Shown: positions 1 to 18,878 of the stretch, piece by piece | Numbering within the stretch: position 1 is the first letter of the stretch | Layout: each line of letters begins with the position of its first letter | Origin: an uncultured Candidatus Saccharibacteria bacterium | GTDB lineage: Bacteria > Patescibacteriota > Minisyncoccia > Minisyncoccales > CAZVLR01 | Reading direction: 5' to 3' | Length of the DNA stretch: 58,725 nucleotides | NCBI GenBank assembly: GCA_964628095.1 | Contig: CAZVLR010000004.1 | Span: forward strand, 1-58,725 | Translations under genes and position numbers: made by a program | The notes under the pieces: model-generated | Told to the model about the DNA's origin: nothing | What the model saw: only the letters and a program-made list of their open reading frames with translations | Database searches by the model: none

Positions 1-1054
1 CAAGACTGATTTCCGGCCAAAAGGGCAAGGACAGAATTTCTTGAACGGCTAATTCGGTTTTGGGCAAATCCCCTTTTTTATAGCCCAGTTTTTTATAGCC
101 TGACTGCAAATGCACGGGAATGGGATAATGAATCATGGTGTTAATGCCGGCTTTTAATAAATACGCCTGAAGTTTTTCCCGGTTTTTTGCCTTAATAACA
201 TAAACGTAAAAAACGTCTTTTTGCCCAGGTTTCTTAATAGGCAAAGCAATAGACAGGCCTTTTAACAATTTTTTGTAATTCTTGGCCGCCTTTTGGCGCA
301 GCTTTATCCAATCTGGCAAATATTTCATTTTAATCCCCAAGATCGTCCCTTGCAGCGCCTCCATGCGGAGGTTAAGGCCGAATTCCGAATGGTGATATTT
401 TTTCTCTGAACCGTGGTCGCGCAATATTTTCATTTTTTCGGCCAATTTTTGATTGTTTGTTACCACCGCCCCTGCCTCTCCCATAGCACCCAAAACTTTG
501 GTCGGATAAAAACTAAAACAACCAATATCGCCAAAAGACCCGGCCTTCTTTCCAAAAAACTCGGCGCCGTGCGCTTGGGCACAATCTTCCACCACGAACA
601 ATTTATGTTTTTTGGCGATCCTTAAAATCTTGTCCATTTCGCAGGTTTTTCCAAAAAGATGCACGGGTAAAATTACTTTGGTTCTTTTATTAATTTTGGC
701 TTCGATTTTAGCCGGATCCATATTAAAAGTTTTTGAATCAATATCGACAAATACCGGTTTTAATCCCAAAAACATAACCGCTTCAATGGTCGCCACAAAA
801 GTGTTGGCTACGGTAATAACTTCGTCTCCTTTTTTTAAATCCAGCGCCATTAAAGCCAGAATTAAAGCCGAGGTGCCATTATTCACGCCCAAAGCGTATT
901 TTGCACCGCAAAACTTGGCAAAGTCCCGCTCAAAGCTTTCAGTTTTGGGGCCTAAAATATAAAGTCCGGAATCTAAAACCGCTCGGGTTTCTTTCTCGAT
1001 TTCTTTTTTTATCGTTCGGTATTGTTTTTTAAAATCAACAAAGGGAACCTTCAT
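1..1054 (-). CDS. DegT/DnrJ/EryC1/StrS PLP-dependent sugar aminotransferase (WlbC/WbpE-like); runs off the left edge of the window
   Basis: Absent from the ORF track; translated by hand from ATG at 1054: MKVPFVDFKKQY...GLYILGPKTESFERDFAKFCGAKYALGVNNGTSAL...VHLFGK...EDCAQAHG...FSFYPTKVLG...LSLPFWPEIS; no stop before position 1. Confidence 0.9.
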   Translation of the reverse strand, partial: MKVPFVDFKKQYRTIKKEIEKETRAVLDSGLYILGPKTESFERDFAKFCGAKYALGVNNGTSALILALMALDLKKGDEVITVANTFVATIEAVMFLGLKPVFVDIDSKTFNMDPAKIEAKINKRTKVILPVHLFGKTCEMDKILRIAKKHKLFVVEDCAQAHGAEFFGKKAGSFGDIGCFSFYPTKVLGAMGEAGAVVTNNQKLAEKMKILRDHGSEKKYHHSEFGLNLRMEALQGTILGIKMKYLPDWIKLRQKAAKNYKKLLKGLSIALPIKKPGQKDVFYVYVIKAKNREKLQAYLLKAGINTMIHYPIPVHLQSGYKKLGYKKGDLPKTELAVQEILSLPFWPEISL

Positions 1055-1057
1055 AAA

Positions 1058-1543
1058 TTATTGTTTTTCCTTTAAAACCTTGGCCGGATTGCCAGCTACT
1101 ACAAAACCCGGCTTTACGTCTTCTAAAACCACGCTCGCCGCCCCCACCAAAGCCTTCTCTCCGATTACCACGCCGCACATTATCGTTGCCCCGCTGCCAA
1201 TGGAAGCGTCTTTTTTAACTGTGATTTTTACCACCTGCCAATCTTTTTCGGTTAACAGCTCCCCGGATTCGGTTGCCGATTTGGGATATTTGTCGTTGAT
1301 AAAATTAACGTTGTGCCCGACAAAAACATTATCTTCAATAGTTACGCCTTCGCAAATAAAGGTATGGCTGGAAATCTTGCAGTTTTTTCCGATTTTCACG
1401 CCTTTTTGGATTTCCACAAAAGCACCGATCTTGGTATTGTCGCCGATTTCGCAGCCGTACAAATTAACAAAGGGCCCGGCAATTTCCACATTCTTTCCAA
1501 GTTTTACGTCTTCTTTTATAATCTGAAAATCTTTTGGATTCAT
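1058..1543 (-). CDS. Hexapeptide-repeat sugar N-acetyltransferase (WlbB/WbpD-like)
   Basis: LbH repeats, SHTFICEGVTIEDNVFVGHNVNFINDKYP, VAGNPAK; lies between oxidoreductase and aminotransferase. Confidence 0.88.
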   Translation of the reverse strand: MNPKDFQIIKEDVKLGKNVEIAGPFVNLYGCEIGDNTKIGAFVEIQKGVKIGKNCKISSHTFICEGVTIEDNVFVGHNVNFINDKYPKSATESGELLTEKDWQVVKITVKKDASIGSGATIMCGVVIGEKALVGAASVVLEDVKPGFVVAGNPAKVLKEKQ

Positions 1544-1554
1544 ATTTTTAAATT

Positions 1555-2577
1555 TTATGAAATTAATATTTCCCGGCCTTTTTCTTTTACGGATTCGCTG
1601 ATCGCTTCTAAAAGTTTGGCAACCCTTAACCCGGCCTCGCCATTGCTAAGCGGCTGCTTTCTTAAATTTACGCAATCAACAAAATGCTGGGCAGCTTTTT
1701 TCAAAGTTTCGGTCTGATCGATTTTAGGAATTACAATATCTCCGCTCCGGTATAAGGGCGCAAAGGGCGTCACCTGCGAAGGGTTAACATCGATGCCCTT
1801 ATCGTAAATTCTTATTTTTTCATCAGATTCAACATCGTTGTATAAAACCATTTTCTTGCTGGCGCCAATAATGGTTTTTCTGATTTTTAAAGGCGACAGC
1901 CAGCTCACCCTGACAAAGCTGATAAAATCGTTCTCGTGCCTGATATTAATAGAGGCAGTCTCGCTTTGATTTTGGCTAATATGATTAAAGCTTAAAGCTG
2001 AAACGGCCAAAGGCTTTTGGGAAAACAAATAATCAATGATCGACAAATCATGGACGGCCAGATCCGAAATCACATTAGCGTCGGACCTAATTAATCCCAA
2101 ATTAATCCTTTCAGAATCATAGTAATAAAGCTTGCCTAATTCATCCTTATCAAGCAAATCTTTGATTTTTTGCACCGCGCCCGAATAAATAAAGGTGTGA
2201 TCCACCATTAAAATCCGCCCTTTTTCTTTTGCCAAATCTATCAATTCTTTAGCTTCTTTGGAATTCTCCACCATGGGCTTTTCAATTAAAACATCCTTTT
2301 GGGCCAAAAGCGCGGCTTTGGCGATTTTAAAATGGGTCGAAAGCGGCGTAGCAATACAAACAGCTTTAGTTTCCGGATCGTCTAGCACTTCCTGATAATC
2401 AGTGGCTAATTTTGCAGCCGGATATATTCGGTTCAAATGCGCTAATTTTTCGTGGTTTTGATCACAAATGTATGAAATTTCAACCTCGGGTAACTGGAAA
2501 AAATTACGCGCCAAATTCGGGCCCCAATAGCCATAACCAATAAACGCTATTTTAATCTTTGAATTTTGATTTTCCAT
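1555..2577 (-). CDS. Gfo/Idh/MocA NAD-dependent oxidoreductase (WlbA/WbpB-like)
   Basis: IGYGYWG Rossmann motif, IATP..THF, EKP, DLAVHDLS. Confidence 0.88.
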   Translation of the reverse strand: MENQNSKIKIAFIGYGYWGPNLARNFFQLPEVEISYICDQNHEKLAHLNRIYPAAKLATDYQEVLDDPETKAVCIATPLSTHFKIAKAALLAQKDVLIEKPMVENSKEAKELIDLAKEKGRILMVDHTFIYSGAVQKIKDLLDKDELGKLYYYDSERINLGLIRSDANVISDLAVHDLSIIDYLFSQKPLAVSALSFNHISQNQSETASINIRHENDFISFVRVSWLSPLKIRKTIIGASKKMVLYNDVESDEKIRIYDKGIDVNPSQVTPFAPLYRSGDIVIPKIDQTETLKKAAQHFVDCVNLRKQPLSNGEAGLRVAKLLEAISESVKEKGREILIS

Positions 2578-2581
2578 AAAA

Positions 2582-3661
2582 TTAATTGTTAAAACCTATA
2601 ATTTTAAATATTTCATTAAACCTTTTTTCATAAGTATGGTCTTTCATCGTTCTTTCGTACCCGGCTCTGGCAATTATTTCCCTTTCCTGTTCGTGATTTA
2701 AATAATACTTTATCTTTTTGACCAAATCCTTAAAATTTTTGAAAATAACCAGTTCTTTACCGTTTTGGTAATAATCTTTAAAATTATCGGCGTCGTCGGT
2801 TAAAAGAAAACCGCCGCAACCCAAAACTTCAAAAGACCGGCAATGAATCTGGGGCCTAAGCGAACCCAAAAAAGATTTAAAGTTATCGGGCCAGTTTTTA
2901 GGATTATTAATTTTTAGCTTTCTCTCGCCTCTTTCGCCCCGATGCTTTAAAAAAATCGATCCGAATTTTTTTAAAAGAGAGCCTGAGCTCATATTAAAAT
3001 TAAGGTTTATCTTACTTTGCGAAAAAACTTTGGGCATATCCTCTTGGGCTAAAACGCCCGAAGGCCAACCATAGCCCCAACATTGAACGTTAATTCCCGC
3101 TTCTTTTAATTTTTTAACCATTCTCCCTCTTACGCTGTGGGGTTGGCCGATAAAAGTAACGTCGTAAATTTTGGGCAGATCCTGTTTTTTATAATAAAAA
3201 TGGTTGCAGCCATATTGGGAGTGAATCACGTTTTTATAGCCGATTTTTTGGTATTTTTTAAAAGACATGGAATCAGCCGTTACCACCCAGTGAAAATATG
3301 GGGCGATTTTTTTGGAAATAGCGTCGAACATCCAACTGTCGTCGCTCACCCACCACAAAGTCTTAGCATTCACTTTTTCAGCCATGTTTTTCATTTCCCT
3401 TAAGGTGCTTTGGGCCAGCTCCCCCTCCAAAAAGAAAACAAGCTGGGGTTTTTCTTCCGAAATTATCTTAAAAAGCTTTTCTTTTACTATCTTTTGGTTC
3501 TCGCCCAAAGAAATTAAAGCTTCGTCTACGCCAAAAAAGATTACCTGGTTACCGGCATTATTCATTTTCAAAAGAGCATCATAAAAATTATGGTAGCCAT
3601 AATTCGGCCCCCGCTCGGGCTCGCCCCTTTTGTATCTGTTGCTGATAAAAAGTATCTTCAT
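2582..3661 (-). CDS. CgeB-like glycosyltransferase (Glyco_trans_1_2)
   Basis: YDVTFIG, SKINLN, RSFEVLGCGGFLLTD, IARAGYERTMKDHTY..R. Confidence 0.85.
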   Translation of the reverse strand: MKILFISNRYKRGEPERGPNYGYHNFYDALLKMNNAGNQVIFFGVDEALISLGENQKIVKEKLFKIISEEKPQLVFFLEGELAQSTLREMKNMAEKVNAKTLWWVSDDSWMFDAISKKIAPYFHWVVTADSMSFKKYQKIGYKNVIHSQYGCNHFYYKKQDLPKIYDVTFIGQPHSVRGRMVKKLKEAGINVQCWGYGWPSGVLAQEDMPKVFSQSKINLNFNMSSGSLLKKFGSIFLKHRGERGERKLKINNPKNWPDNFKSFLGSLRPQIHCRSFEVLGCGGFLLTDDADNFKDYYQNGKELVIFKNFKDLVKKIKYYLNHEQEREIIARAGYERTMKDHTYEKRFNEIFKIIGFNN

Positions 3662-3666
3662 ATATG

Positions 3667-4770
3667 TTAATCCTTGAAAAACTCTTTTATGGCCTCACAA
3701 ATAGCTATTATCTCTTCGTCTTTTAAAAAAGAAGAAGAAGGTAGCCATAAACCGCGCTCGGAAATATCTTGTGAAACTTTAAAATCTCCTTTCACCCAAG
3801 AATAAGGCGGCTGCGTGTGAATGGCCGGATAAAAGGGCCTCGTGCCAATTCCCTGCTCTTTTAAAAATTTAGCTAATTCATCTCTTTTGTCCTGCGCAAC
3901 CAAAATATCAATAAACCAAGGAGCAGTATCCTGCAAATCGGTTTTAATAAATTCTATTTCTTTAACGTTTTTTAATAAATCCCGGTAAATCTTATAAATT
4001 TCTTTTTTCCGTTCAACCCGCCAAGCTAATTTCTTCATTTGTTCAATGCCGATTACCGCCTGCAGATCGGTGAACTTAAAATTCAAGCCCATAACCTCGT
4101 GATAATCGATACCGGCTTGAGCCCGGCCAAAATCTTTTATTCTGAGCATTTTTTGATAAAAAGCCTCGCTGTCGGTTACCAAAGCTCCGCCCTGGCCGGT
4201 AGTGATGATTTTGGGCGAACTAAAAGAAAAACTTCCAATATCACCAAAGGTACCCAAATGTTTGCCTTTGTATCTTGAACCCAAGGCCTGGGCCGCGTCT
4301 TCGATTAAAAATAAATTGTGCTCTTTGGCTAAATCAACGAATTTTTCCACTTCCGGGCAACGGCCGTTAAGAGCAACTAACATAATGACTTTGGTTTTTT
4401 TGCCAATGGCAGCTTTTGTTTTTTCCAAATCAAGGCACAAATTTTCCTTATTAATATCGACAAAAACCGGCTTGGCTCCGGCCAACACAATGGCATTGGC
4501 TGAAGCGATCATGGTAAAATCTGGTACAATAACTTCGTCTTCTTGTTTTAAATCCAACGCCAGCAAAGCCGTTATCAAGCTAACGGTTCCATTGCTTACA
4601 ACCAAAGCGTATTTTGAGCCAACATAATCAGCGATCATTTTTTCGAATTCCCTGGTCTTTTTAAACTCGGTCAGCCAGGCGCCCGAATCCATGTATTCGG
4701 CCACGGCCTTTTTTTCTTCTTCTCCGATCCAAGGCTCAATCTGATTTATTTTTTTAATTAAGTTGTTCAT
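3667..4770 (-). CDS. DegT-family aminotransferase (perosamine synthetase-like)
   Basis: VSNGTVSL, EDAAQALGS, SFSFSSPKIITTGQGG, LWLPSS. Confidence 0.9.
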   Translation of the reverse strand: MNNLIKKINQIEPWIGEEEKKAVAEYMDSGAWLTEFKKTREFEKMIADYVGSKYALVVSNGTVSLITALLALDLKQEDEVIVPDFTMIASANAIVLAGAKPVFVDINKENLCLDLEKTKAAIGKKTKVIMLVALNGRCPEVEKFVDLAKEHNLFLIEDAAQALGSRYKGKHLGTFGDIGSFSFSSPKIITTGQGGALVTDSEAFYQKMLRIKDFGRAQAGIDYHEVMGLNFKFTDLQAVIGIEQMKKLAWRVERKKEIYKIYRDLLKNVKEIEFIKTDLQDTAPWFIDILVAQDKRDELAKFLKEQGIGTRPFYPAIHTQPPYSWVKGDFKVSQDISERGLWLPSSSFLKDEEIIAICEAIKEFFKD

Positions 4771-5363
4771 TTTTGTGCTTTTACATTAAGACTAATTAAA
4801 ATCCCCTTGTCTTTTTGCATATGGGGAATATAGGCCTGTGAAAAATCATCGTAATCTTTATGGATGGTTTTTTGCCAATCGTAACGACTGACGTTTTTAA
4901 AGCCGGCTTCCTCCAAAACTCTTTTTAAAGATTTGAAGTCGTAAACGGTTTTGTGGTAAATAAATTTTTTACCCTTCTTGGTTTTTATTTCAATCCGGCC
5001 GTAAAGCGGCCCCAGCAGCCCCCGATGGTCCAGGTTTTTCTTGTATTTTAAATAAACCCTAACCATAGCCTCAAAATCGGGCACGGCCAGAAAAAGAAAC
5101 CCGCCCGGCTTTAAAACGCGCCGCCACTCCCTTAAAACTTGCCGGGCTTCCTGGCGATCAAAATATTCAAAGGCATGGCAGACGTAAATTAAATCAACCG
5201 AATTATTACCAAACATAGGCAGGCTGGAAATTTCGTGCTGGTAATCAATATGGGAAAAACTGTCTAAATCAATATGAATAAAGCCTGGAATATGTTTTTT
5301 CCCGCAACCCAAATGCAGCTTTATCTCTTTATTTTTTAATTGTCCGCTTTTTTTATTTTTCAT
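4767..5363 (-). CDS. Class I SAM-dependent methyltransferase-like protein (glycan modification)
   Basis: KLHLGCG motif I, HAFEY, EWRRVLKPGG; start moved to ATG 5363, which overlaps the upstream stop. Confidence 0.78.
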   Translation of the reverse strand: MKNKKSGQLKNKEIKLHLGCGKKHIPGFIHIDLDSFSHIDYQHEISSLPMFGNNSVDLIYVCHAFEYFDRQEARQVLREWRRVLKPGGFLFLAVPDFEAMVRVYLKYKKNLDHRGLLGPLYGRIEIKTKKGKKFIYHKTVYDFKSLKRVLEEAGFKNVSRYDWQKTIHKDYDDFSQAYIPHMQKDKGILISLNVKAQK

Positions 5364-5778
5364 AGAATTTTCTTTTATCTTTTTCAACGCCCGCGTAAGG
5401 GCCGTTTTTTACTTCAAAAACCTGGGTATTATCTTCTAAAATTTCAAAGTCGTGGCCGCCGGCCAAAAAAACTATAATATCGTCCTCGGTTAAAATAATG
5501 TTCTCCATCAAATTATCCTGCTCGTCATAAATCCCCGACTTTATCTTTCCGCTTTTTAAATAAACTGCTTCCTGGGTTCTTTGGGCCGCCCTTTCAAAAA
5601 TTAAGTGGTTGTGCCCCTTTATCTTCTGCCCTTTTTGGTATTTCCAGGTGCCCAATTGAATAAAGTCTTCTTCTTTATTATAAAAATTCAATCCTTCGGG
5701 ATAATCGCCCGACCTTAAAATAATCGCCAATAAATCCCCTTCCTTGCTATAAATTTTCTCTGTTTTTGTACCATTCAT
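5353..5778 (-). CDS. Cupin-fold protein (WbuC-like, putative sugar isomerase/epimerase)
   Basis: H-x-H..(E)..GGH cupin metal ligands, EVKNGPY; located in glycan operon. Confidence 0.6.
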   Translation of the reverse strand: MNGTKTEKIYSKEGDLLAIILRSGDYPEGLNFYNKEEDFIQLGTWKYQKGQKIKGHNHLIFERAAQRTQEAVYLKSGKIKSGIYDEQDNLMENIILTEDDIIVFLAGGHDFEILEDNTQVFEVKNGPYAGVEKDKRKFYEK

Positions 5779-6724
5779 AAGTTTTTTTTAAGCCCTCCCC
5801 CAATGAAGTTTGGGCAGAAAAACCGGTTAATTGTTTAATCTTGGTTAAATCCGGACACCTTCTTTTAACCGAACCCTTTGGCGCCTCATGGATTTCCATA
5901 TTCTTGGGATGAAAGCCAAATAAATCAAACATTTTTTTGGCTAAATCCAGCATAGAAATTTCTTCGCTGTTTCCAATATGAACAATTTCTCCGTTAGTCT
6001 TTTCCGATTCCATAACCAGCTGTGTGGCCCTTACCGTATCGTCGATATAACAAAAAGACCGGGTGGCATCGGCGCCAAAAATTTTAAAGGGATCTTCCTG
6101 TTTAATAATTCTGGCCAAAAATTCTGGTATCACGTGCTCGTTTCCCATGCGCGGGCCGTAACTGTTGTGATAACGCACAATGCTCATGGGGAAATTATAA
6201 GCCCGGCTCCAGTTCACAAAAAGCAACTCGCCGATAATCTTGCCGCCGCCGTAAGACCACCTGGGATTTAAAACGTCGTCGACGCATAGAGGCACGTTTT
6301 CGGGTGTGGGCAAAGGACCACCGGTTAAACTAATATAAGAGGCATAGCCCTCGTTGGAAGAAGTAAATAAAATCTTGCCTCTTTTCTGTTCTTTAAACCA
6401 TTCCAAAATATTCAACACGCCTTGTACTCCCACCTTTAAAACTTCCTGGGGCTTTTCGTAAAAGTTTTTGGTGCCGTTAACGGCGGCCAAATGATAAACG
6501 TAATCGTAGCCCGAACCTAAGCGATTAAACTGCGAAAAGTCGGTAATGTCTAATTCGACAAATTTAACGTTGGGCTGCTCCAGGAGCGCTTTTACCTCTT
6601 TATCCATTTTGCCGCGGGACAAATTATCGGCAATCACCACCTCCTGTCCTTGTTCTGATAAGGATTTGGCTAAAAAATATCCGACCGTACCGCAGCCGCC
6701 TGTAATTAAAACTTTTTTGTTCAT
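5747..6724 (-). CDS. NAD-dependent nucleotide-sugar epimerase/dehydratase (extended SDR)
   Basis: ITGGCGTVG, HLAA, YGGGK (YxxxK), RYHNSYGPR. Confidence 0.9.
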   Translation of the reverse strand: MNKKVLITGGCGTVGYFLAKSLSEQGQEVVIADNLSRGKMDKEVKALLEQPNVKFVELDITDFSQFNRLGSGYDYVYHLAAVNGTKNFYEKPQEVLKVGVQGVLNILEWFKEQKRGKILFTSSNEGYASYISLTGGPLPTPENVPLCVDDVLNPRWSYGGGKIIGELLFVNWSRAYNFPMSIVRYHNSYGPRMGNEHVIPEFLARIIKQEDPFKIFGADATRSFCYIDDTVRATQLVMESEKTNGEIVHIGNSEEISMLDLAKKMFDLFGFHPKNMEIHEAPKGSVKRRCPDLTKIKQLTGFSAQTSLGEGLKKTYEWYKNRENL

Positions 6725-8049
6725 ATTTTTAAATTATCTCCTATTCTAAATATTTTAATATTTTCTTCTTTTAAAACTTCTAAATTTTTTAAGTTATGCC
6801 AGCAATCAACAATAAGCAAAGGGCGGCCGGCCTCCTTTAAAACCTTTGCGGCATCAATCTCGATCAGGTCGACATGATTGGTTAAAAATATGGCTACGTT
6901 CACACCCTTTACGCTTTGCCACAAATTTTTTGAAACTTTATTGCCGGCAAAATATTTGGTTAAAGGATCGTAAAAAGTAAAACTCGCCCCTTTAAGCTTA
7001 TTTTTCAGCTCTTGGTAAACATCCAATGCTGGAGAATTTCTGATATCGTCGGTGGCCGGTTTACCTTTAAAGGCTACGCCCAACAAAACGATTTTTGGGT
7101 TTTTAATTTTGTTCTTTTTAATAAATTTTAGCGCTTCAAAAGCAACCCTTAAGTTGGCCGATTTATTCCTTTCAATTGATGCATTAATAACAGAAGTGCC
7201 AACCTTGTTTTGATGCGCAAAATATTTTAATATCTGCGGATCTTTTGACAGGCAGGGACCGCCCGCACCCAGGCCTGGCAAAAACAGATTGGTTCTGGGA
7301 TAGGTATAATTTACGGCTTTAGCCAGCTCATAGCTGTCAATTCCCGTTTTTTCACAGATATTGCCGATCTCGTTTCCAAAAGCAATATTGGTAGCGCGGT
7401 AAACATTATCGACACACTTGCACATTTCCGCTATTTCTAAAGAAGAAACCTTAAGCACTTTGCCGCCCAGAATTTTGATTATTTTTGCGCCTCTTTCCAA
7501 ACTTTCTTTGCTAATCCCCCCTACGATTTTGGGCAAATTATAAAGCTCGTATAGGGCTCGGCCTTCAACCGTTCTTTCTGGGCAAAAAACCACATAAAAA
7601 TCTTTGCCGGCTTTCATTTTTGATTTTTTCTCCAGTTTCTCGGCAAGTTTACGGGTTAATCCCGGCATTACCGTGGATTTGAACATAATAAGCTGGCCTG
7701 GTAAAAGCTCGCCCCCGATCATATCAACCACGTTATCCAAATAGCTAAAATCGGGCTGGTTGTTATTTTTTAAAGGTGTGCCGACCGTTACTAAAATTGT
7801 TTGGCATTCCTTTACGGCTTTTTTGTAATCGCTGGTAAACTCTATGTTTTTTCTATAGCGGGCCAAAGCATCATTAACTCCGGGTTCGTAAATATCGGTT
7901 TTATAAGTTTTTTTCAATTTCTGTATTTTTTTCTTATCCACGTCAATCCCCAACATTTGGCAGCCGCGGCTGGCAAAAGCAGCGATTAGAGGCAAGCCAA
8001 TATAACCCATGCCCATGATTCCGATTTTTTCTTTTTTATTTTTTTTCAT
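6721..8049 (-). CDS. Nucleotide-sugar dehydrogenase (UDP-GlcNAc/UDP-ManNAc dehydrogenase, WbpA/WecC-like)
   Basis: GMGYIGLP, KSTV.PG, PER..EG, PGLGAGGPCLSKD, GVAFK..TDDIRNSP. Confidence 0.9.
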   Translation of the reverse strand: MKKNKKEKIGIMGMGYIGLPLIAAFASRGCQMLGIDVDKKKIQKLKKTYKTDIYEPGVNDALARYRKNIEFTSDYKKAVKECQTILVTVGTPLKNNNQPDFSYLDNVVDMIGGELLPGQLIMFKSTVMPGLTRKLAEKLEKKSKMKAGKDFYVVFCPERTVEGRALYELYNLPKIVGGISKESLERGAKIIKILGGKVLKVSSLEIAEMCKCVDNVYRATNIAFGNEIGNICEKTGIDSYELAKAVNYTYPRTNLFLPGLGAGGPCLSKDPQILKYFAHQNKVGTSVINASIERNKSANLRVAFEALKFIKKNKIKNPKIVLLGVAFKGKPATDDIRNSPALDVYQELKNKLKGASFTFYDPLTKYFAGNKVSKNLWQSVKGVNVAIFLTNHVDLIEIDAAKVLKEAGRPLLIVDCWHNLKNLEVLKEENIKIFRIGDNLKI

Positions 8050-9502
8050 AATTTAATTTTAATAAGGGTTTTAATACAAACAGAGTGGCAAAATAAATAA
8101 GGACTGAAAGAGCAATCAAAAGAATAATATGAACCTTTAAGATCAAAGGGTTAATGATTAAAAAATACATTACGCCGCTGGAAATGGCCGAGGCCAAAAA
8201 ACTGAATAAAATATTAAAGTTAAATGGTTTTACCGTGGTAAATTTTATCAACAAATAAATTAGCAAAAAAAGAATTACAATATTTGCCGCTAAACTCGAC
8301 CAGGCGGCCCCGTAAAGGCTGAATTTTGGAATTAAAATTAGGTTTAGTAAAACATTTATAACTGCTCCGACCAACACCGCCCAAAAAAGCTTTTTTTGCT
8401 GGTGAGCGGCAATTAAGGCCTGGCGCGAGGTATCGTAAAGGAAAACCACCCCCACCATCAAAATTAAAATCTGGAAAGCCAAAGCTGAGGGCGCGTAAAC
8501 TTGGCCATAAAAGAAATCTATAATCTGGGGCGCCAAAACCACGCCGCCCAAAACCAAAGGCAAAGCGAACACAACCATGGTTTTGGTTTCAAAGTCCCAA
8601 ACCCTCTGGAAGTTTTCCTTTTCCTTGTAAAGCTTGCTTAAAACCGGGAAAAAGCTCTGGGAAAGCAGAACCATGGGCATTAAGGTTAATTTGCTGATTT
8701 TAACGGCGGCATTATACCAGCCGTTAGCGCTCATCTGGCCCAAGTAGCCCATAATTACCGAATCGATTTGGTTATAGGTAGTAGTTACCAAGCCCACCAA
8801 AGCCATGGGCCAGGACAAAGAAAACATTTTGCGCCAGATCTTTTTGTCAAAGCTTAAAGTTAAACGATGTATTTTAAAATGAAAGAACAGGATAACAGCT
8901 AATAACAGGAAAAAGGCTTCGGCCAGATAAGCATAGCTTAAATTAACCAAAGAGGGAAAATTGAAAATAACGAAGAAAACGAAAACAACCGAGAGCACAG
9001 CGTCCAAAATTCTGGCGGCCGATTCGTATTGCATCTGTTGCCGGGCCCTGAAAAAAGCATGGAAAATATCAATGGGCACGCCGAATAAATTATAAAGGGC
9101 TAAAATCCAGATCGCCTTTCTGACAATGGGGTCGGGCGTAAGAAAAAAGGAGCTGATAACCAGCAAAAACGTTCCGCCCAGGCCCAATAAGATTTTTAAA
9201 GAAAGAAAGTCAGAATACTCTTTTTCCTTTTCTTTATCTTGAGATAATTCCCGGGTGACAATCTCAGGCGATACAAAGCCGGGCAAAATGCTGAATAAAT
9301 ACATTACCGAAATGGCAAAATTAAACTTTCCGTATTCGGCCGCTCCTAAAATACGGGCCACGTAAATGAACAAAATAAAAATTAAAACCTTGTTAACCAC
9401 TTCAGCCAAACCCAGCCAAAGGCTGTTTTTAAAAATCGTCTGGCCAGTGCTTTGGTTTTGGAATAAAAATGTTTTAATGTCTTTAAAATTCTTGATTTTC
9501 AT
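8036..9502 (-). CDS. Wzx-type polysaccharide flippase
   Basis: Many TM segments, ARILGAAEYGKF, GWYNAA, LNLILIPKFSLYGAAW; start moved to ATG 9502 to remove the overlap. Confidence 0.88.
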   Translation of the reverse strand: MKIKNFKDIKTFLFQNQSTGQTIFKNSLWLGLAEVVNKVLIFILFIYVARILGAAEYGKFNFAISVMYLFSILPGFVSPEIVTRELSQDKEKEKEYSDFLSLKILLGLGGTFLLVISSFFLTPDPIVRKAIWILALYNLFGVPIDIFHAFFRARQQMQYESAARILDAVLSVVFVFFVIFNFPSLVNLSYAYLAEAFFLLLAVILFFHFKIHRLTLSFDKKIWRKMFSLSWPMALVGLVTTTYNQIDSVIMGYLGQMSANGWYNAAVKISKLTLMPMVLLSQSFFPVLSKLYKEKENFQRVWDFETKTMVVFALPLVLGGVVLAPQIIDFFYGQVYAPSALAFQILILMVGVVFLYDTSRQALIAAHQQKKLFWAVLVGAVINVLLNLILIPKFSLYGAAWSSLAANIVILFLLIYLLIKFTTVKPFNFNILFSFLASAISSGVMYFLIINPLILKVHIILLIALSVLIYFATLFVLKPLLKLNYEKK

Positions 9503-9506
9503 AAAA

Positions 9507-10877
9507 TTATGCAGGCATTGCCAAAGGCGGATTATTCTTTTCAAATTCTGCTACTTTTAACTTCATTTTTGATGAAACTTCTTTTTCCTGATTAAAAACA
9601 TTATTTTTTTCTCCCGGATCCTTTTCCAAATTATATAACTCTTCAACCCGGCGAATCTTATCAAAAATGTATTTCCAAGGACCATCTTGGCAAGCAATGT
9701 TATAACGACCGAATCTTTTTTTAACCTGCTCTGCATTCATCTCGCTCGTGCCAAAATGGGAAGAAGCCTGAAAATAAAGAGGATGGGTGGGAGATAAAAA
9801 CAAATCCCCGCCTTTAAAAGACTTGGGCTTTTCTATTTCCAAAAAGTTCAAAATCGTAGGTGCTAAATCTATTAAGGAAACCGGGTAATCGATAATTTTA
9901 TGATTTTCCCCAGGCAACTTTATTAAAAGCGGCACTTTAACGTTTTCCTGGTAAAGCCGGCAGCTAAAGTGCGATACCCCGCCCCGCTCGAAAAATTCCT
10001 CCCCGTGATCAGAAGTTAAAATAATTAAAGAATCCTGGTAGAGGTTCTCTTTTTTTAAAAAATTAATAAAGCTGCCGAATTCCTGGTCAAAACACTCCAC
10101 GCCCTGTTCATATAAATCAATAGTTTTTGAAAAATATTTTCCAAAAAACTTTCTTAATTTACCCTTTTTAGGATAGTCATTCAAATAATTAACATAGCTG
10201 CCGGCCACCGCTTCGTCAAAATCGCAAAAGTTATTGGCCTCGTAACTGGCCTTGGAAATATACGGACCGTGCACATCCATGTAATGAACCCAAAGGAAAA
10301 AGGGGTTTGAATCGTTTTTTACCGAAAGAATAAACTCTTTGGCGGTTTTGTTAATCTGGCTGGCTTTTACTTTTAAACCAGTTTGTAAAATACCTTCCTT
10401 GTCTTTAGCGTATTTTATCTTAAAGAAAGTTTGAGGCGAAAACGTAAGTAAGAAATTCTTAAAAATTTCTTTTGAAAAATCTTTTACGGGGCTTTTTTGC
10501 GCTAATTTACCGGTTGCCAGAACATTATCTTCAAAGTAATCCCAGCCCTGGTTATAGCCAAAAAGCCCGGAAAGAAAAGGATTGGCATGAAAAGCGGCGG
10601 TATTGTAGCCGGCCCCCTTTAAAACTTCGCTTAAAAGAAATCGCGGCTTTTCTATTTTATGCGGCCCCTGATAATCCAAAGGATAGGTGGAAGTTAAAAC
10701 ACTCGGGAAAACATAGGGCGTGGAAGGACCCGTAGAAAAAGCATTGGTAAAAACTGCGCTTTCTAAAGAAAATTTATCCATGTTCGGGCTAATTTTTTTC
10801 TCACAACCCAAAAACCCCAGGCGGTCGGCCCTTAATGAATCGATTGTTATTAAAATGATATTAGAATACTTTTTCAC
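9507..10877 (-). CDS. Sulfatase-fold (alkaline phosphatase superfamily) protein, non-formylglycine Thr type, paralog A
   Basis: NIILITIDSLRAD, HYMDVH, TSDHGEEF, ELYNL..DPGE; nucleophile region GPSTPYVFPS; GTG start; no signal peptide. Confidence 0.85.
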   Translation of the reverse strand: MKKYSNIILITIDSLRADRLGFLGCEKKISPNMDKFSLESAVFTNAFSTGPSTPYVFPSVLTSTYPLDYQGPHKIEKPRFLLSEVLKGAGYNTAAFHANPFLSGLFGYNQGWDYFEDNVLATGKLAQKSPVKDFSKEIFKNFLLTFSPQTFFKIKYAKDKEGILQTGLKVKASQINKTAKEFILSVKNDSNPFFLWVHYMDVHGPYISKASYEANNFCDFDEAVAGSYVNYLNDYPKKGKLRKFFGKYFSKTIDLYEQGVECFDQEFGSFINFLKKENLYQDSLIILTSDHGEEFFERGGVSHFSCRLYQENVKVPLLIKLPGENHKIIDYPVSLIDLAPTILNFLEIEKPKSFKGGDLFLSPTHPLYFQASSHFGTSEMNAEQVKKRFGRYNIACQDGPWKYIFDKIRRVEELYNLEKDPGEKNNVFNQEKEVSSKMKLKVAEFEKNNPPLAMPA

Positions 10878-12294
10878 CTTTTTTTAAAAGCGCCAAGGGC
10901 GGATTTGTTTTTTCAAATTCCTTGACTCTTTCTCTCATTTCAAATAATGTTTTCTCATTTTTAAAAGCAAGATTGGCCCTTTCTCCCGGATCCTTTTTAA
11001 GATCGTAGAGCTCTTCTTTTTCGTTTCCGTGGTTAATAATATATTTCCAGTTTTCTGACTGGCAGGCAGCCCGGCATTCGGTAAACTTTTCTACCTCTAC
11101 CCATTTTTCAATTTTATCTTCTCCCGCCCAGCCGGACTGATGAAAAATTATCTCCCGATCATAATTAAAAAGATTTTTACCTTTAAATGCGCCGGGTACA
11201 TTAACGCCCGATAATTCGCAAAGCGTAGAGGGTAAATCGATTAAAGATACTTTTTTTGTAATTTTTTGGGGCGATTTTCCAGGAATTTTGATTAATAGAG
11301 GCACCTTCAACAATTCATTGTAAAGTTTATCGGTAATGTGGTCTGTGCCTTCGTGCTCTAAAAATTCCTCCCCGTGGTCGGCCGTTAAGCAGATAATGGA
11401 ATTATTATAAAGATCGTTCTTTTTTAAAAATTCCAGCAATTCTTTTATTTTTACATCCAGTTTTTCTACGGCCTGATCGTAAAGATTAATGCTGTATTTA
11501 AGGTGCTTTCTGGCGAATTTTTTAAAAATGAAATTTGAGGAAGCATAATAATCGGAGGCGAAAACTGGCAAAACAATGGCTAAAAAATCTAAAAAGGAAA
11601 CGTTTTTCTCCTCGGGAAAATCGTTATAACGGTGTACATCCATGTAATGAACCCAAAGAAAAAAGGGCGCCTGCTGGATTTTCATGGAAAAAATGCAGTC
11701 TCTGATGGTTTTATCAAAAGAAGCGGGGCTAATTGCCGATTTGTCGCTCTTGGAAACTTTTTTTGAGGCTTTGATTTTATACTTTAAATAAAGAGTCCAA
11801 AAGAAGAAAATCGGAATGGAGTTAAAGGTTATTTTAATAAAAGCGTTAATCAGGGACTGGCGGAAAGAAAAAGCAACGCCTTTTCTTTTGCTGATAATCC
11901 CTTTTTCAGGAGAAAAAATTATGTTTTTGGGAGGATTAAATAACTCTTCAAAAAAATCCCAGCCCTGGTCATAACCAAAAAAACTGGAGAGGTAGGCACT
12001 GGAATGAAAGGCCGCAGTGCTATATCCCTGCTCTTTTAAAACCTGGCTTATCATCACTCTCGGTTTTCCAATTTGTCTCGGCCCCATATAATCCAAGGGA
12101 TAAGTAGAAGTTAAAATTGACGGGAAAGAATAGGGAGTACCGGGCCCGGTGGCAAAAGCATTGGTAAAAACCGCTGATTCTTGGACCAATTTGTCAATAT
12201 TCGGACTAATATTTTTCTCATAACCCATAAAGCCCAAGCGGTCAGCCCGCAAGGCGTCGATGGTGATTAAAATGATATTTGGTTTGTTCTTCAT
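10861..12294 (-). CDS. Sulfatase-fold protein, non-formylglycine Thr type, paralog B
   Basis: PNIILITIDALRAD, HYMDVH, TADHGEEF, ELYDL..DPGE; nucleophile region GPGTPYSFPS. Confidence 0.85.
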   Translation of the reverse strand: MKNKPNIILITIDALRADRLGFMGYEKNISPNIDKLVQESAVFTNAFATGPGTPYSFPSILTSTYPLDYMGPRQIGKPRVMISQVLKEQGYSTAAFHSSAYLSSFFGYDQGWDFFEELFNPPKNIIFSPEKGIISKRKGVAFSFRQSLINAFIKITFNSIPIFFFWTLYLKYKIKASKKVSKSDKSAISPASFDKTIRDCIFSMKIQQAPFFLWVHYMDVHRYNDFPEEKNVSFLDFLAIVLPVFASDYYASSNFIFKKFARKHLKYSINLYDQAVEKLDVKIKELLEFLKKNDLYNNSIICLTADHGEEFLEHEGTDHITDKLYNELLKVPLLIKIPGKSPQKITKKVSLIDLPSTLCELSGVNVPGAFKGKNLFNYDREIIFHQSGWAGEDKIEKWVEVEKFTECRAACQSENWKYIINHGNEKEELYDLKKDPGERANLAFKNEKTLFEMRERVKEFEKTNPPLALLKKGEKVF

Positions 12295-13460
12295 AAAATA
12301 TTGCCAACGGCAATAATTTTTCCCTTATTTTTTAAAACGATCTTTCCCAAAATTGTTTTGCCGCTTGAATCAAAAACAACCGGCTTTTCCAAAAAAATAT
12401 TGTAGTTAGTTTTTGTTCCTTCTTTGGCTGATTCTAAATCCTGCAAAATACCTGAAACCTGGGCCGTACCGCATTCTAAAATTAAGTCGGCTTTTGAAGG
12501 TTTTTCAATCCAAAAAATCTCACCGGCCAATTTGTTGCTGGTTAAAAACTGCCCTGGTTCTAAAACGCCGACTGATCCCCGAAAAACCGGTAAGGAGTTT
12601 AAAACAACCAAGCCAATATTCTGCCCGGCTTCGGCTTTTTTAATCTCTCCCTCGGAATCGCGGATTTCCTGAATTTTTAATTTTTGGTTTTGGGGTAAAA
12701 AAATTATTTCCTGGCCAATATTTACTTGGCCAGTTTGCACCTGGCCCACCAAAACTTCCTGGCCGGCTTCCTCGTATTTATCCTGAATTAAAAAGCTAAA
12801 AGGCAGCTTTGAAAAATCTTCGAGTCCGGCAATTTCTCTCTCTAAATACTCCATTATTGTCGGCCCCGTATACCAAGATGTCTGGCTGGATTTTTCAACA
12901 ACGTTATCGCCGCCTCGGGCTGAAATCGGAAAAAACTGTATCTTTTCTAAATTATAGCCAATCTCCTTTAAAATCTGTTCTATCTGGCCCTTCATTTCTT
13001 CAAAGGCAGATTGTTTAAATTCAATAGAATCCATTTTATTAATTGCCACGCCCAGCTGCAAAATGCCCAATAATTTGGCAATTTCCAAATGCTGCCGGGT
13101 TTGCTCTTCAATGCCCTCCTGAATGGAAGCCAAAAGTATGGCGCCCTTGGCATTAGACGCACCGGTTAGCATGTTAGCAATTAATTCGGCATGGCCCGGC
13201 ACGTCTATTAACTGGTAATTCCTTTCTTTACCCTTTAAAAAAGCCCGGGTGGTATCCATGGTCATTTCCCGCTCTCTTTCTTCTTTAAAGCTATCCACCA
13301 AATGCGCTAATTCAAACTGCCGACCGCAGCTTTCATCCACCTCTTTTACTTCCTGGTAGCGGCTTTCTTTTATAGACTTGGTATCCAAAACCAGCCGCCC
13401 AATTAAGGTAGATTTGCCGTGGTCTTTATGGCCGATTAAAACAATGGGTATTTCTTGCAT
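12291..13460 (-). CDS. cysN: Sulfate adenylyltransferase GTPase subunit (no APS-kinase fusion)
   Basis: GHKDHGKSTLIGRL, EERE..MTMD, DVPGH, QTRQH, INKMD, ISA..GDNVV..S..WY.GPT; next to cysD. Confidence 0.82.
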   Translation of the reverse strand: MQEIPIVLIGHKDHGKSTLIGRLVLDTKSIKESRYQEVKEVDESCGRQFELAHLVDSFKEEREREMTMDTTRAFLKGKERNYQLIDVPGHAELIANMLTGASNAKGAILLASIQEGIEEQTRQHLEIAKLLGILQLGVAINKMDSIEFKQSAFEEMKGQIEQILKEIGYNLEKIQFFPISARGGDNVVEKSSQTSWYTGPTIMEYLEREIAGLEDFSKLPFSFLIQDKYEEAGQEVLVGQVQTGQVNIGQEIIFLPQNQKLKIQEIRDSEGEIKKAEAGQNIGLVVLNSLPVFRGSVGVLEPGQFLTSNKLAGEIFWIEKPSKADLILECGTAQVSGILQDLESAKEGTKTNYNIFLEKPVVFDSSGKTILGKIVLKNKGKIIAVGNIL

Positions 13461-13498
13461 GAGCTTTAATAAAAGGCAAATTAAGAATTAAATATATT

Positions 13499-14269
13499 TT
13501 ATGTGTAACCAAGGTCTCTCAACCTTTTCATTATTTCTTCTCGCACTACGCCTCTCCCTGCTCGTTCGTGCGCGTTCGGATCGGGATTTTTTTCCGTACA
13601 AACCACGCAACCCAAGGAAGTATAACCTCTGGCATAAAGCGGGTTGCATTCAATATTGTACTTTTTAACGTAATCTAGAATATCTTTTTTCCTCCAGAAT
13701 AAAAGAGGGTGAACCCTAAGATGATCTGGATTTTTTCTGGGCGAGAAGAAAACTTCTTTGGCCCGCTCTTCGTGCTCCACACCCCGCAAGCCCACAAAAA
13801 AGGCTTCAAAGCCAAAATCTCCGATCGCTTTCATCATCGGAGCTATTTTGTGATAGCCGCAGCAAATAGCGGTAAAATCCGCTGTTTTTAAGCCGTATTT
13901 ATCTATCAACTTTTCCAATTTGTCTTCCTCGGCTTTAACAGTGTGGAAGTTTTTTATATTCCATTCCTTCACCACTTTGTTGATGAACTCGTAGGTTTCT
14001 GGAAATTCGTGCTGGGTATCGACAAAAACAATCGGCGTGTTCTCGGGCAAAAAAGGCAAAGCCAAATGCATTAAAACCAAACTGTCGGTACCGCCGCTAA
14101 ACCCCAAACCGATTTTAGGGTATTTAGCCAAGGCTTCTTTTATGATTTCTTGCGATTTGGCTACTTTTTCCTCCAAAGGAAGGTCTAATAAAGCCCGCGC
14201 TTCGGGAATCATTAGCTCTTCGCAATTTTTTGTCCTTTGTTCGGTAAAATCTATTTTTTGATTTTCCAT
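13499..14269 (-). CDS. PAPS/APS reductase-family PP-loop protein with CC...CxxC motif, lacking C-terminal ECGLH (CysH/CysD hybrid)
   Basis: FSGGTDS, CC at aa 136-137, YTSLGCVVCT (CxxC at aa 221-224), ERAGR, ends MKRLRDLGYT. Confidence 0.78.
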   Translation of the reverse strand: MENQKIDFTEQRTKNCEELMIPEARALLDLPLEEKVAKSQEIIKEALAKYPKIGLGFSGGTDSLVLMHLALPFLPENTPIVFVDTQHEFPETYEFINKVVKEWNIKNFHTVKAEEDKLEKLIDKYGLKTADFTAICCGYHKIAPMMKAIGDFGFEAFFVGLRGVEHEERAKEVFFSPRKNPDHLRVHPLLFWRKKDILDYVKKYNIECNPLYARGYTSLGCVVCTEKNPDPNAHERAGRGVVREEIMKRLRDLGYT

Positions 14270-14314
14270 AATTTTAATTAATTTATTAATGTTTTATTCG
14301 ACCTTTTAAATTGC

Positions 14315-15097
14315 TTACATATATCCTAATTCTCTTAATCTCTGCATTACGTATTCTTTTTCTTTATCCAACTCCCGGCCGCTTCTTTCCCCCACCTGGC
14401 TGATTTTCAATTCTTCGATAATCTTATCGATATTGTCGGCATTAGATTCGACCGGATGGGTAACTTCTTTGTAACCCAAACTCCGGAATCTTTTGCCGTC
14501 TTTGGCTAAATATAAAGGGTTAAAAGGAAGGTTTTTTTCCTTGGTATACTCCCAAATATTCAGCTCGGTCCAGTGAAGCAAGGGGTGGATGCGCACGTGC
14601 GAAGCGTCGTCAAACTCTGAAACGTAACTGAAGATTTCTGGCGGCTGATTCTCAAAATTCCATTTAAAATCCTTGTTTCGAGGCGAAAAATATCTTTCCT
14701 TGGCCCGAATGCCGTGCTCGTCTCTTCTTATAGAAACAATCAAAGCGTCAAAACCTTTTTCATCAAGCATTTTTTTCAAAGCCTCGGCCTTATTCAACCC
14801 TTCGGTGGTGCCAGAAATGCTGTCGGCTTCAGGATTAACTTTACCGACTAAAAGATTCAAGTTCCAATCTTTAGCGAGCTTATCTCTAAAAGCATACGTT
14901 TCATCAAAATCGTGGCCGCTGTCCAGATTAATCACCGGGAAGGGAATTTTCCCAAAAAAAGCCCTCTGGCACAAGTAAAGCATGCAGGTGGAGTCTTTCC
15001 CCATAGACCATAATACCGCCGGGTTTTTGAACTTAGCCCTTACCTCTCTTAAAATATATATGCTTTTTTGCTCTAGTTGTTGAAGATTAAAATCCAT
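14315..15097 (-). CDS. cysD: Sulfate adenylyltransferase subunit 2
   Basis: LEQKSIYILRE, LWSMGKDS, RRDE..RAKERYFSPR, RIHPLLHWTE..IWEY, RFRSLG, ERSGR..M..LRELGYM. Confidence 0.88.
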   Translation of the reverse strand: MDFNLQQLEQKSIYILREVRAKFKNPAVLWSMGKDSTCMLYLCQRAFFGKIPFPVINLDSGHDFDETYAFRDKLAKDWNLNLLVGKVNPEADSISGTTEGLNKAEALKKMLDEKGFDALIVSIRRDEHGIRAKERYFSPRNKDFKWNFENQPPEIFSYVSEFDDASHVRIHPLLHWTELNIWEYTKEKNLPFNPLYLAKDGKRFRSLGYKEVTHPVESNADNIDKIIEELKISQVGERSGRELDKEKEYVMQRLRELGYM

Positions 15098-15856: not shown

Positions 15857-15860
15857 ATTT

Positions 15861-16619: not shown

Positions 16620-16865
16620 TTACCAATTTTCAATGGTTTCTCTGGTTTTGTCTTTTAACTTTTTATAGACGCCGTAAACCTTGCTTTCCACCTGAGGCGA
16701 AACCAAATTCAAAATTTCGCTCCCCCAAATCCGGTACTGGCCGCCCACTTTATAGGCTTTTAAAATGCCGCCTTTTAGCATTCTTTTAATAGTGCTCTCG
16801 CTGATTTTTAAAAAATCGCGCGCTTCTTCGGTAGTATAAATTTCGTTGGGCTTAATTTCCGCCAT
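16620..16865 (-). CDS. Small HTH_17 (excisionase/BldC-like) DNA-binding protein heading the glycan operon
   Basis: YTTEEARDFLKISESTIKRMLKGGILKAYKVGGQYRI is a typical MerR/Xis-like winged HTH. Confidence 0.85.
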   Translation of the reverse strand: MAEIKPNEIYTTEEARDFLKISESTIKRMLKGGILKAYKVGGQYRIWGSEILNLVSPQVESKVYGVYKKLKDKTRETIENW

Positions 16866-18836: not shown

Positions 18837-18878
18837 AATCTTCTCTAATCTTACAATTAATTTTAATTTATTTCAAAC

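Follow-up and report, generated by a model that had tools for sequence, protein, structure and literature searches.

What do genes for sulfate activation do inside a surface-glycan operon, directly beside two genes of the sulfatase fold, in a bacterium of the candidate phyla radiation (CPR)? This question is raised by the contig CAZVLR010000004.1 of an uncultured Candidatus Saccharibacteria bacterium (assembly GCA_964628095.1), which was analysed over its whole length of 58,725 nt and is called the window in the following. On its minus strand we find a module of six genes, consisting of cysD, a gene for a CysH-like protein, cysN, two sulfatase-fold genes named sulfB and sulfA, and the flippase gene wzx. 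Sulfation is, to our knowledge, taught as the work of 3'-phosphoadenosine 5'-phosphosulfate (PAPS) together with P-loop sulfotransferases, with the periplasmic arylsulfate sulfotransferases (ASSTs) as the only accepted exception. Here we propose a different answer for this locus. SulfA and SulfB would be cytoplasmic glycan sulfotransferases which work through a threonine nucleophile and are fed with adenosine 5'-phosphosulfate (APS) by CysDN, a reading to which we give a probability of roughly 0.55. At slightly better than even odds, the module would be a self-contained system for PAPS-free glycan sulfation inside a Wzx-type surface-glycan operon of a groundwater bacterium with a small genome. 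Taken by itself, a sulfotransferase function of the two proteins appears probable and, once this function is granted, APS is the donor that we would clearly expect.

The initial annotation had described the order cysD, CysH-like, cysN, sulfB, sulfA, wzx with overlaps between cysN, sulfB and sulfA and a flippase gene abutting sulfA. All six genes were recovered at their places and the junctions could be read directly. The first gene, cysD (14315..15097), encodes the small PP-loop subunit of sulfate adenylyltransferase in a short form of 260 amino acids (aa). It is followed by the gene for an iron-sulfur (Fe-S) PP-loop protein of the PAPS-reductase superfamily, the CysH-like protein (13499..14269, 256 aa; PF01507, E 1e-44), and by the cysN-like GTPase gene (12291..13460, 389 aa; GTP_EFTU, E 1.6e-41). 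Then come two genes for proteins with a Thr-type S1-sulfatase fold, sulfB (10861..12294, 477 aa; PF00884, E 6.4e-40; SGSH_C, E 1e-11) and sulfA (9507..10877, 456 aa; PF00884, E 8.4e-41; SGSH_C, E 7.3e-13), and finally wzx (8036..9544), coding for a flippase of the MOP family (Polysacc_synt, E 8.2e-33; Polysacc_synt_3, E 6.6e-24). The stop of cysN and the start of sulfB overlap by 4 nt in a shared ATGA, and a 17-nt overlap joins sulfB to sulfA. The ATG of wzx that is consistent with its homologues (~9499) lies 4 nt past the sulfA stop, and the true start of wzx is very probably near 9499 and not at 9544. The module sits within a surface-glycan operon of the Wzx type.

SulfA and SulfB (43% identical to each other) share with the S1 formylglycine sulfatases (PF00884) the fold, the SGSH_C subdomain, the first Asp and the D-H metal ligands. 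An AlphaFold2 model of SulfA (pLDDT 89.8, pTM 0.91) found its best PDB folds among the carbohydrate S1 sulfatases (Foldseek; 7oz8 with E 1.2e-25 and a TM-score of 0.71), which points to a scaffold that binds sulfate esters. The active site departs from that of these enzymes. In a profile-to-PDB alignment (E 3.4e-49) the Thr of G-T-P-Y-S-F comes to lie on the formylglycine Ser of S-T-P-A-R in sulfatase 7oz8, and His303 takes the place of its sulfate-binding Lys. The motif C/S-x-P-x-R is absent from both SulfA and SulfB, which read T-P-Y-S/V-F at the aligned place, and none of 118 homologues has an in-register Pro at +2 or an Arg at +4 after position 53. The label "Thr-type", given to both proteins beforehand, is borne out: position 53, the formylglycine position, is Thr in SulfA, in SulfB and in 100 of the 118 homologues, and Ser in the other 18. 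By alignment, Thr53 together with D13, D290 and H291 constitutes a Thr nucleophile in a metal site. D13 is kept in 115 of the homologues, H198 and H203 in 117, and D290, H291 and H303 in all 118. Because the metal ligands are near-invariant and position 53 is always Thr or Ser, the active site is predicted to be under selection and formylglycine chemistry to have been lost.

Where would such enzymes work? The catalytic domain begins at residue 5, and neither a signal peptide nor a transmembrane (TM) segment was found in SulfA or SulfB; the highest Kyte-Doolittle (KD) hydropathy over a 19-residue window is 1.46 in SulfB and 1.34 in SulfA. Because the catalytic domain starts this early and no segment has the hydropathy of a TM helix, both proteins are predicted to be cytoplasmic, in which they differ from the S1 sulfatases. 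A helical insert specific to the family (roughly residues 115-175) sets them further apart from these. Its part at 147-166 is moderately hydrophobic in SulfB (KD 1.44), under the TM range, and a membrane anchoring of SulfB was rejected as unproven in view of the top value of 1.46. A predicted complex of SulfA with the CysH-like protein scored 0.00, which is evidence neither for nor against binding.

A Thr nucleophile in this superfamily has well-known models. LtaS, EptA and MCR-1 are Thr-nucleophile phosphotransferases which form a covalent enzyme intermediate; they have the Thr at the N-terminus of the equivalent helix and a similar D-H-G-E...H motif, and serve here as the mechanistic model. 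The same likeness opens an alternative, namely that SulfA and SulfB transfer another group, such as phosphoglycerol, phosphoethanolamine or a nucleotide-derived phosphate, and share no more than an operon with CysDN. However, LtaS, EptA and MCR-1 are characterised by five or more TM helices at the N-terminus, a catalytic domain outside the cytoplasm and lipid donors, whereas the multi-TM module and the outward catalytic domain are absent from the two proteins of the window. Furthermore, the NCBIfam matches to LtaS, EptA and YejM all stay far under their cut-offs (for LtaS 39.8 bits against 970). Under this alternative, sulfite would be what CysDN and the CysH-like protein provide, for use in a sulfonated sugar or some other product. 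The Fe-S motifs of APS reductase and an invariant Cys16 in the CysH-like protein speak for it. Against it, no UDP-sulfoquinovose synthase was found; the short-chain dehydrogenase (SDR) encoded at 5747-6724 scores 27 bits where the cut-off of NF041015 is 575, and the UDP-sulfoquinovose route was rejected on this ground. The comparison of other genomes, given below, bears on it as well, and we regard this alternative, transfer of another group together with sulfite formation, as distinctly unlikely.

The next question is which activated sulfate could serve as donor. The assembly comprises 703,227 bases in 18 contigs and is 96.44% complete with 0.28% contamination. Each profile search was repeated as a control in 14 genomes, and a search with a silent control is taken as uninformative. 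Already the initial annotation had stated that the window lacks an APS kinase, a classical PAPS-dependent sulfotransferase, a sulfite reductase and a cysteine synthase; in a Pfam scan none of the 45 window open reading frames (ORFs) matched any of the first three or the PALP family. When the search was extended to the whole genome, as had been suggested, there was likewise no match to APS kinase (PF01583, control positive in 11 of 14 genomes), to the sulfite reductase family NIR_SIR (PF01077, 11 of 14) or to Sat-type ATP sulfurylase (PF01747, 5 of 14). Among the sulfotransferase families, Sulfotransfer_1 (PF00685) and Sulfotransfer_3 (PF13469) gave no genome match with controls positive in two of 14 genomes each; for three further families the search was uninformative, as described below. 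The genes sulfA and sulfB are the only PF00884 genes of the genome, and cysD and the CysH-like gene stand alone in matching PF01507 if a single weak hit under the cut-off, on contig C5, is set aside.

One might still suppose that SulfA and SulfB are sulfotransferases with PAPS as donor, which would come from the host or from an APS kinase that escaped recognition or assembly, so that CysDN would supply the APS precursor only. As far as is known, every carbohydrate sulfotransferase with characterised biochemistry uses PAPS, the genome is incomplete, and haloarchaea, which come into the argument below, do possess an APS-kinase domain (the PF01583 control was positive in Haloferax volcanii). Yet PF01583 found nothing in the genome, and neither Pfam nor NCBIfam detected an APS-kinase domain in CysN. 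In a related locus cysD and cysN are followed directly by the Thr-type sulfatase gene, again with no kinase. The comparison with PAPS-based bacterial modules, for which we take NodP/NodQ with NodH in rhizobia and CysDNC with Stf0 in mycobacteria as examples, is instructive. In these, too, a CysD/CysN-type activation is dedicated to a surface glycoconjugate and encoded beside the transferase; they have an APS kinase, in many cases as a fusion with CysN, and a PAPS sulfotransferase of the P-loop type, whereas here neither was matched and a sulfatase-fold gene stands after cysN. This gene presumably occupies the slot that the APS-kinase domain has in CysNC fusions, which suggests that the Thr-type sulfatase is the consumer of APS. 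Since the slot is taken in this way and no kinase was found, APS is the parsimonious donor, and we consider the PAPS explanation quite improbable.

That proteins of this fold can add sulfate is already in print for haloarchaea. According to the available text of Zaretsky et al. (mBio 2025, PMC11980604), Agl30 (VNG1056C) and Agl31 (VNG1057C) are the N-glycan sulfotransferases of Halobacterium salinarum. Both are alkaline-phosphatase-superfamily proteins with carbohydrate sulfatases as nearest structures; Agl30 was in the membrane fraction and has a predicted N-terminal TM segment, and Agl31 was soluble. Upon their deletion, sulfate was lost from the third and fourth sugars, iduronic and glucuronic acid (IdoA, GlcA), of the tetrasaccharide linked to dolichol phosphate (DolP), and upon expression in Haloferax volcanii the glycan of this species became sulfated (PMC11980604). 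The accessible part of a follow-up paper (PMC12624080) places their action before the flippase Agl29. For Haloferax volcanii itself, Agl7 (HVO_2046) has been implicated in the sulfation of DolP-hexose (PMC3892788, seen in part), but its fold is not named in the available portions of PMC3892788 and PMC5867893. In the text of PMC11980604 as far as available, the words donor, nucleophile, threonine, formylglycine and phosphosulfate do not occur, and Bacteria are mentioned in connection with other matters.

The parallels to the window are several. In both cases there are proteins with the sulfatase fold and carbohydrate sulfatases as nearest structures, encoded by neighbouring paralogues in a cluster for glycan assembly that includes a flippase gene. 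Agl30 and Agl31 act in the cytoplasm on the lipid-linked glycan before flipping, as we propose for SulfA and SulfB, and their targets are uronic acids, while the window operon encodes an NDP-sugar 6-dehydrogenase. On the other hand, the window module is bacterial and belongs to an operon of the Wzx and undecaprenyl-phosphate type and not to an AglB/DolP pathway, it is coupled to cysD, cysN and an Fe-S PP-loop gene in a genome in which no APS kinase was found, and in place of the predicted N-terminal TM segment of Agl30, SulfB has only the moderately hydrophobic internal insert. Our profile retrieved haloarchaeal homologues of 26-31% identity, all with Thr at the aligned position. A Haloquadratum locus (L023) has two sulfatase-fold genes and a GT2 gene within 8 kb of aglB, and an STT3-family gene lies at most 10 kb from a homologue in two of the five haloarchaeal genomes tested. 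In a FastTree phylogeny, whose supports were left unexamined, the L023 protein groups with the wider clade of the window proteins and most other haloarchaeal homologues stand further off.

The module had been called undescribed, and this has to be narrowed. Sulfatase-fold proteins as glycan sulfotransferases are already known from the haloarchaeal work, in the available text of PMC11980604. We found no published account of a coupling to CysDN, of APS as donor, of the Thr nucleophile or of an occurrence in CPR bacteria, and a full-text search outside the subscription journals gave no APS-dependent sulfotransferase, no APS as sulfate or sulfuryl donor and no sulfatase-like sulfotransferase. New here is the bacterial (CPR), CysDN-coupled and kinase-free form, with its implications for donor and nucleophile.

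Among the proteins that would provide the donor, CysD is the clearest case. It reaches 288.1 bits with NF003587 (cut-off 195) and its match to 1zun_A, a solved CysD, extends into the ...GY tail at the C-terminus (E 9e-54). The CysH-like protein is less easily placed and scores below every NCBIfam cut-off, those of the CysH models included. In an alignment with the Fe-S APS reductase 2goy it shares the CC and S-x-G-C-x-x-C-T motifs. The C-terminal catalytic Cys (E-C-G-L-H) is absent and replaced by a CysD-type tail without Cys, so that the CysH-like protein and CysD end in the same ...R-L-R-x-L-G-Y; this tail was not found elsewhere in the genome beyond these two proteins. Moreover, its PP-loop is intact (SGGTDS), whereas it is degenerate in the aligned 2goy, and it is 29.6% identical to the window CysD over the full length. 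In a family of 34 sequences the PP-loop, C136, C137, C221, C224, Cys16 and the tail are all invariant. The name "CysH-like" conceals that the protein, with its PAPS_reduct domain and Fe-S motifs, is judged by its sequence a hybrid of APS reductase and CysD. Its listed homologues are 66-91% identical and come from sources that include Nealsonbacteria, Nanoarchaeota, Pacearchaeota and Micrarchaeales, that is, CPR bacteria and DPANN archaea. Either very strong constraint or a recent transfer between CPR and DPANN could explain this similarity, and the distribution suggests transfer between the domains.

Is the linkage of these genes conserved? Homologues returned from genome and metagenome collections were mostly distant (25-37% identity), and a metagenome contig, L089, is the sole close relative among the matches listed. 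It carries a TauE permease gene, cysD (80% identical), cysN (61%), a Thr-type sulfatase gene and then a methyltransferase gene. The Thr-type sulfatase gene starts in an ATGA overlap with cysN, as in the window; no CysH-like gene is present at this locus, and no kinase gene between cysN and the sulfatase gene. Upstream of cysD (L089:70-1137) an ORF for a 70-aa RHH-like protein precedes the gene for the TauE-family permease (PF01925, E 1.8e-26). This RHH-like ORF ends in ...R-L-R-S-L-G-Y-F, mimicking the C-terminal tail of CysD and the CysH-like protein.

As a proxy for co-location on contigs we counted identical longest-contig sizes shared between the homologue tables (the best ~120 entries of each), with shifted sizes as null. 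The lists for the Thr-type sulfatase and CysN share at least 12 exact coincidences (null mean 0.68, maximum 4) and those for the Thr-type sulfatase and the CysH-like protein at least 13 (null mean 0.73, maximum 2). The lists for CysN and the CysH-like protein share three (null mean 0.96, maximum 3). Within the best 88 non-self sulfatase entries (at least 36% identity), 21 out of 54 distinct longest-contig sizes of at least 6 kb coincide with a partner list, and the coinciding sulfatases are scattered across the whole clade. Indirectly, this indicates that the close clade of Thr-type sulfatases habitually shares a contig with CysN or the CysH-like protein, and by the same proxy the latter apparently accompanies Thr-type sulfatases on contigs of other genomes on which no close CysN was seen.

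These counts return us to the sulfite alternative mentioned above. The ATGA coupling of cysN to the sulfatase gene recurs in L089 without a CysH-like gene, and because the CysN and CysH-like lists hardly coincide, two alternative suppliers of one substrate fit better than a two-step reductive path. Since Thr-type sulfatases co-locate with either protein and the two lists rarely meet, the CysH-like protein may itself be an APS-forming or APS-handling protein able to replace CysDN, which we hold for a real possibility a little short of even odds. That it is a reductase using Cys16 seems doubtful to us.

Putting these elements together, we arrive at the following scheme. CysD and CysN would convert ATP and sulfate into APS, driven by GTP hydrolysis; APS formation by CysDN is established for the family. 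SulfB and SulfA would take the sulfuryl group from APS, probably via a sulfo-Thr53 intermediate, in analogy to the phospho-Thr intermediates known from LtaS, EptA and MCR-1. On the cytoplasmic side, two different hydroxyls would receive the group, either in the lipid-linked repeat unit or in a sugar-nucleotide precursor, the acceptor probably being a uronic or diacetamido-uronic acid, and Wzx would then flip the sulfated unit. The CysH-like protein would most likely be a second, GTPase-independent APS-forming or APS-handling PP-loop enzyme. The idea of the initial annotation, cytoplasmic sulfotransferases which are fed by CysDN and act before flipping, is consistent with all tests made and in part supported by them; the activity, the donor, the covalent Thr intermediate, the acceptor and the role of the CysH-like protein are what we infer.

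The two sulfatase-fold genes may have to be seen together. Two or more copies are present in 16 of 80 distant genome loci, and among the best 150 cluster representatives 12 have at least 900 aa, of which all eight that were scanned are fusions of two sulfatase-fold domains (P0374, P0381, P0394, P0403, P0438, P0455, P0463 and P0480; 906-1450 aa). Because tandem pairs and fused double domains both exist, the data suggest that the two paralogues work as a pair. In P0403 and P0463 the N-terminal 330-500 residues are without a Pfam match. A fusion to CysC, CysD, CysN or a glycosyltransferase was seen in none of ten scanned long representatives.

Several observations weigh against SulfA and SulfB as APS-fed sulfotransferases. 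The genome is not closed and this incompleteness counts here; for Sulfotransfer_2 (PF03567), Stf0 (PF09037) and Sulfotransfer_4 (PF17784) the genome gave no match and the controls were silent as well, so the absence of sulfotransferases stands for two families and is uninformative for these three. No sulfate importer was found in the genome, neither a SulP carrier (control positive) nor, by tblastn with the L089 protein, TauE. CysN reaches 231 bits with TIGR02034, below the cut-off of 336, and slightly more, 271 bits, with the EF-1alpha model NF008969, itself below the cut-off of 502. In the CysH-like protein the Fe-S cysteines known from APS reductase are retained along with the invariant Cys16; if it is a reductase, APS would go to sulfite instead of, or besides, the glycan. 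A close orthologue of it was not found in 400 other sampled genomes of the phylum (best 43%), and the Thr-type sulfatase occurs in only two out of 401, the genome of the window included. In the size comparison, 33 of the 54 larger contigs show no coincidence, a count that, drawn from the best ~120 entries, is weak either way. In the wider Thr-type family a PP-loop neighbour was present in 3/80 genome loci and 1/81 metagenome loci and a CysN neighbour in 0/80 and 1/81. Because the partner is rare among distant homologue loci, the link to PP-loop proteins or CysN is restricted to particular clades. Most of the comparative support for the linkage comes from the indirect count of shared contig sizes. 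The likeness of the window proteins to Agl30 and Agl31 is one of published description and gene context. Finally, position 56, a Ser in 113 of the 118 homologues, is Val in SulfA, and position 298, a His in 115 of them, is Arg; SulfB has the consensus residue at both, and the two proteins may differ in activity.

These last departures, at two near-invariant positions, and the lost formylglycine motif would also suit an explanation in which SulfA and SulfB are non-catalytic relics of sulfatases that serve as binding or scaffold proteins. With metal ligands and histidines invariant or nearly so in 118 homologues and position 53 always Thr or Ser, this explanation is barely credible.

More has to be said about hydrolysis. 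SulfA and SulfB could be Thr-type sulfatases, phosphatases or phosphodiesterases which edit or shorten the glycan, break down APS or nucleotide by-products, or supply CysDN with sulfate set free from sulfated compounds that the cell imports. The fold and the nearest solved structures are those of hydrolytic S1 sulfatases, and the NPP-type Thr enzymes of the superfamily are hydrolytic as well. Also, a separate subfamily of Thr-type sulfatases is found among catabolic-looking genes. In genomes of Dehalococcoidia (L012), Desulfatiglandales (L018) and Pirellulales (L019) a stand-alone CysD-like gene lies beside or near such a sulfatase gene, and the surroundings include ASST-like, MttB-like, Sat-like and AprBA-like genes. 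For SulfA and SulfB, however, hydrolysis in the cytoplasm would be futile in an enzyme translationally coupled to one that makes APS, the genome, which has no NIR_SIR, offers no path by which sulfate or sulfite could reach cysteine, a signal peptide for extracellular scavenging is missing, and the haloarchaeal sulfatase-fold proteins add sulfate, as the accessible text of PMC11980604 has it. Hydrolysis is therefore an improbable function of the two proteins.

The three anaerobe loci (L012:1074-6842, L018:9995-14357 and L019:3271-9363) are remarkable in their own right. Their CysD-like proteins of 274-280 aa have the PP-loop and the CysD tail and no Fe-S cysteines. Around them are ASST-like genes (PF05935/PF14269), which in L012 and L019 adjoin the pair of Thr-type sulfatase and CysD-like genes, a gene for an MttB-like methyltransferase with an ORF resembling a corrinoid protein, and ORFs resembling Sat, AprB and AprA by eye. 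The set could form a catabolic pathway in which the sulfuryl groups of organosulfates end up in APS. The ASSTs (PF05935) resemble our proposal for SulfA and SulfB in that they transfer sulfuryl groups independently of PAPS and through a covalent enzyme intermediate, but they are unrelated beta-propeller proteins, are periplasmic and use phenolic sulfates as donors.

Turning to the remainder of the operon, the NDP-sugar 6-dehydrogenase gene follows wzx at 6721-8049 on the minus strand (TIGR03026, 354.7 bits, cut-off 189.8; UDPG_MGDP_dh N, central and C domains). Next on the same strand are the SDR epimerase/dehydratase gene (5747-6724; Epimerase domain, E 3.4e-44) and, within 1..5387, Pfam matches to a methyltransferase, a DegT aminotransferase, a glycosyltransferase, a GFO/IDH/MocA oxidoreductase, a hexapeptide acyltransferase and a second DegT protein whose gene extends past the contig start. 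This gene set we take to resemble the WbpA/B/D/E route to diacetamido-uronic acids. On the other side of cysD, also on the minus strand, lie an ORF of 272 aa for a truncated NDP-sugar dehydrogenase-like protein (15110-15928), a sugar-1-phosphate nucleotidyltransferase gene (15861-16574) and a gene for an HTH_17 protein (16620-16865). In the ORF at 15110-15928 the match to NDP-sugar dehydrogenases is confined to their central part (TIGR03026, 58.8 bits, cut-off 189.8), and it may represent a paralogue of the 6721-8049 dehydrogenase that is truncated or has decayed.

By Pfam, the other genes of the window are of the housekeeping kind (rpoB, rpoC, recA, ssb, ftsK and others). At 17127-30113 and 56587-58635 very large predicted surface proteins adjoin an ECF-type sigma factor and a DUF5667 protein; two of them, of 1450 and 569 aa, have PG_binding_1, one of 1352 aa has a Lamin Tail Domain, and another protein, of 682 aa, has a Peptidase_S74 (endosialidase chaperone) domain. 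Eight runs from three studies, all of groundwater or soil DNA, matched the locus, and no RNA run was among those listed. Contigs of run X5 contain near-identical pieces of the module, with no bearing on its function. In contigs of the runs X7 and X8 position 14275 is joined to 6724 with six other letters between. This junction could stem from a relative in which cysD is directly followed by the epimerase gene, without the block from the CysH-like gene to the dehydrogenase gene, or else from an unrelated organism matched at 80% likeness.

A much wider reading can be formulated, which in its full extent we consider unlikely. Thr-type S1-sulfatase-fold enzymes would be widespread, overlooked APS:alcohol sulfuryl transferases that operate via sulfo-threonine and, together with a CysD-family PP-loop partner (CysDN, or the CysH-like protein as a GTPase-independent ATP sulfurylase), form a minimal system free of PAPS and APS kinase. 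Such a system would have spread horizontally among CPR bacteria and DPANN archaea and given them sulfated surfaces. The anaerobes of the three loci described above would run the chemistry in reverse and transfer the sulfuryl group of organosulfates to AMP, with the resulting APS entering Sat or AprBA, a route that would spare the ATP cost of sulfate activation.

For the question posed at the outset, the locus offers a testable answer, since it combines one translational unit with an APS-making enzyme, a genome in which no PAPS route was found and a predicted catalytic Thr. If SulfA and SulfB are indeed APS-fed sulfotransferases, a large block of "sulfatase" annotations would have to be reassigned; at E <=1e-30 the profile reaches 34,966 cluster representatives, a figure that includes true sulfatases. 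Enzymes for PAPS-free sulfation would become available to biocatalysis. There would be a second general route to sulfated glycans, and it would explain why minimal episymbionts without sulfur assimilation have retained cysDN.

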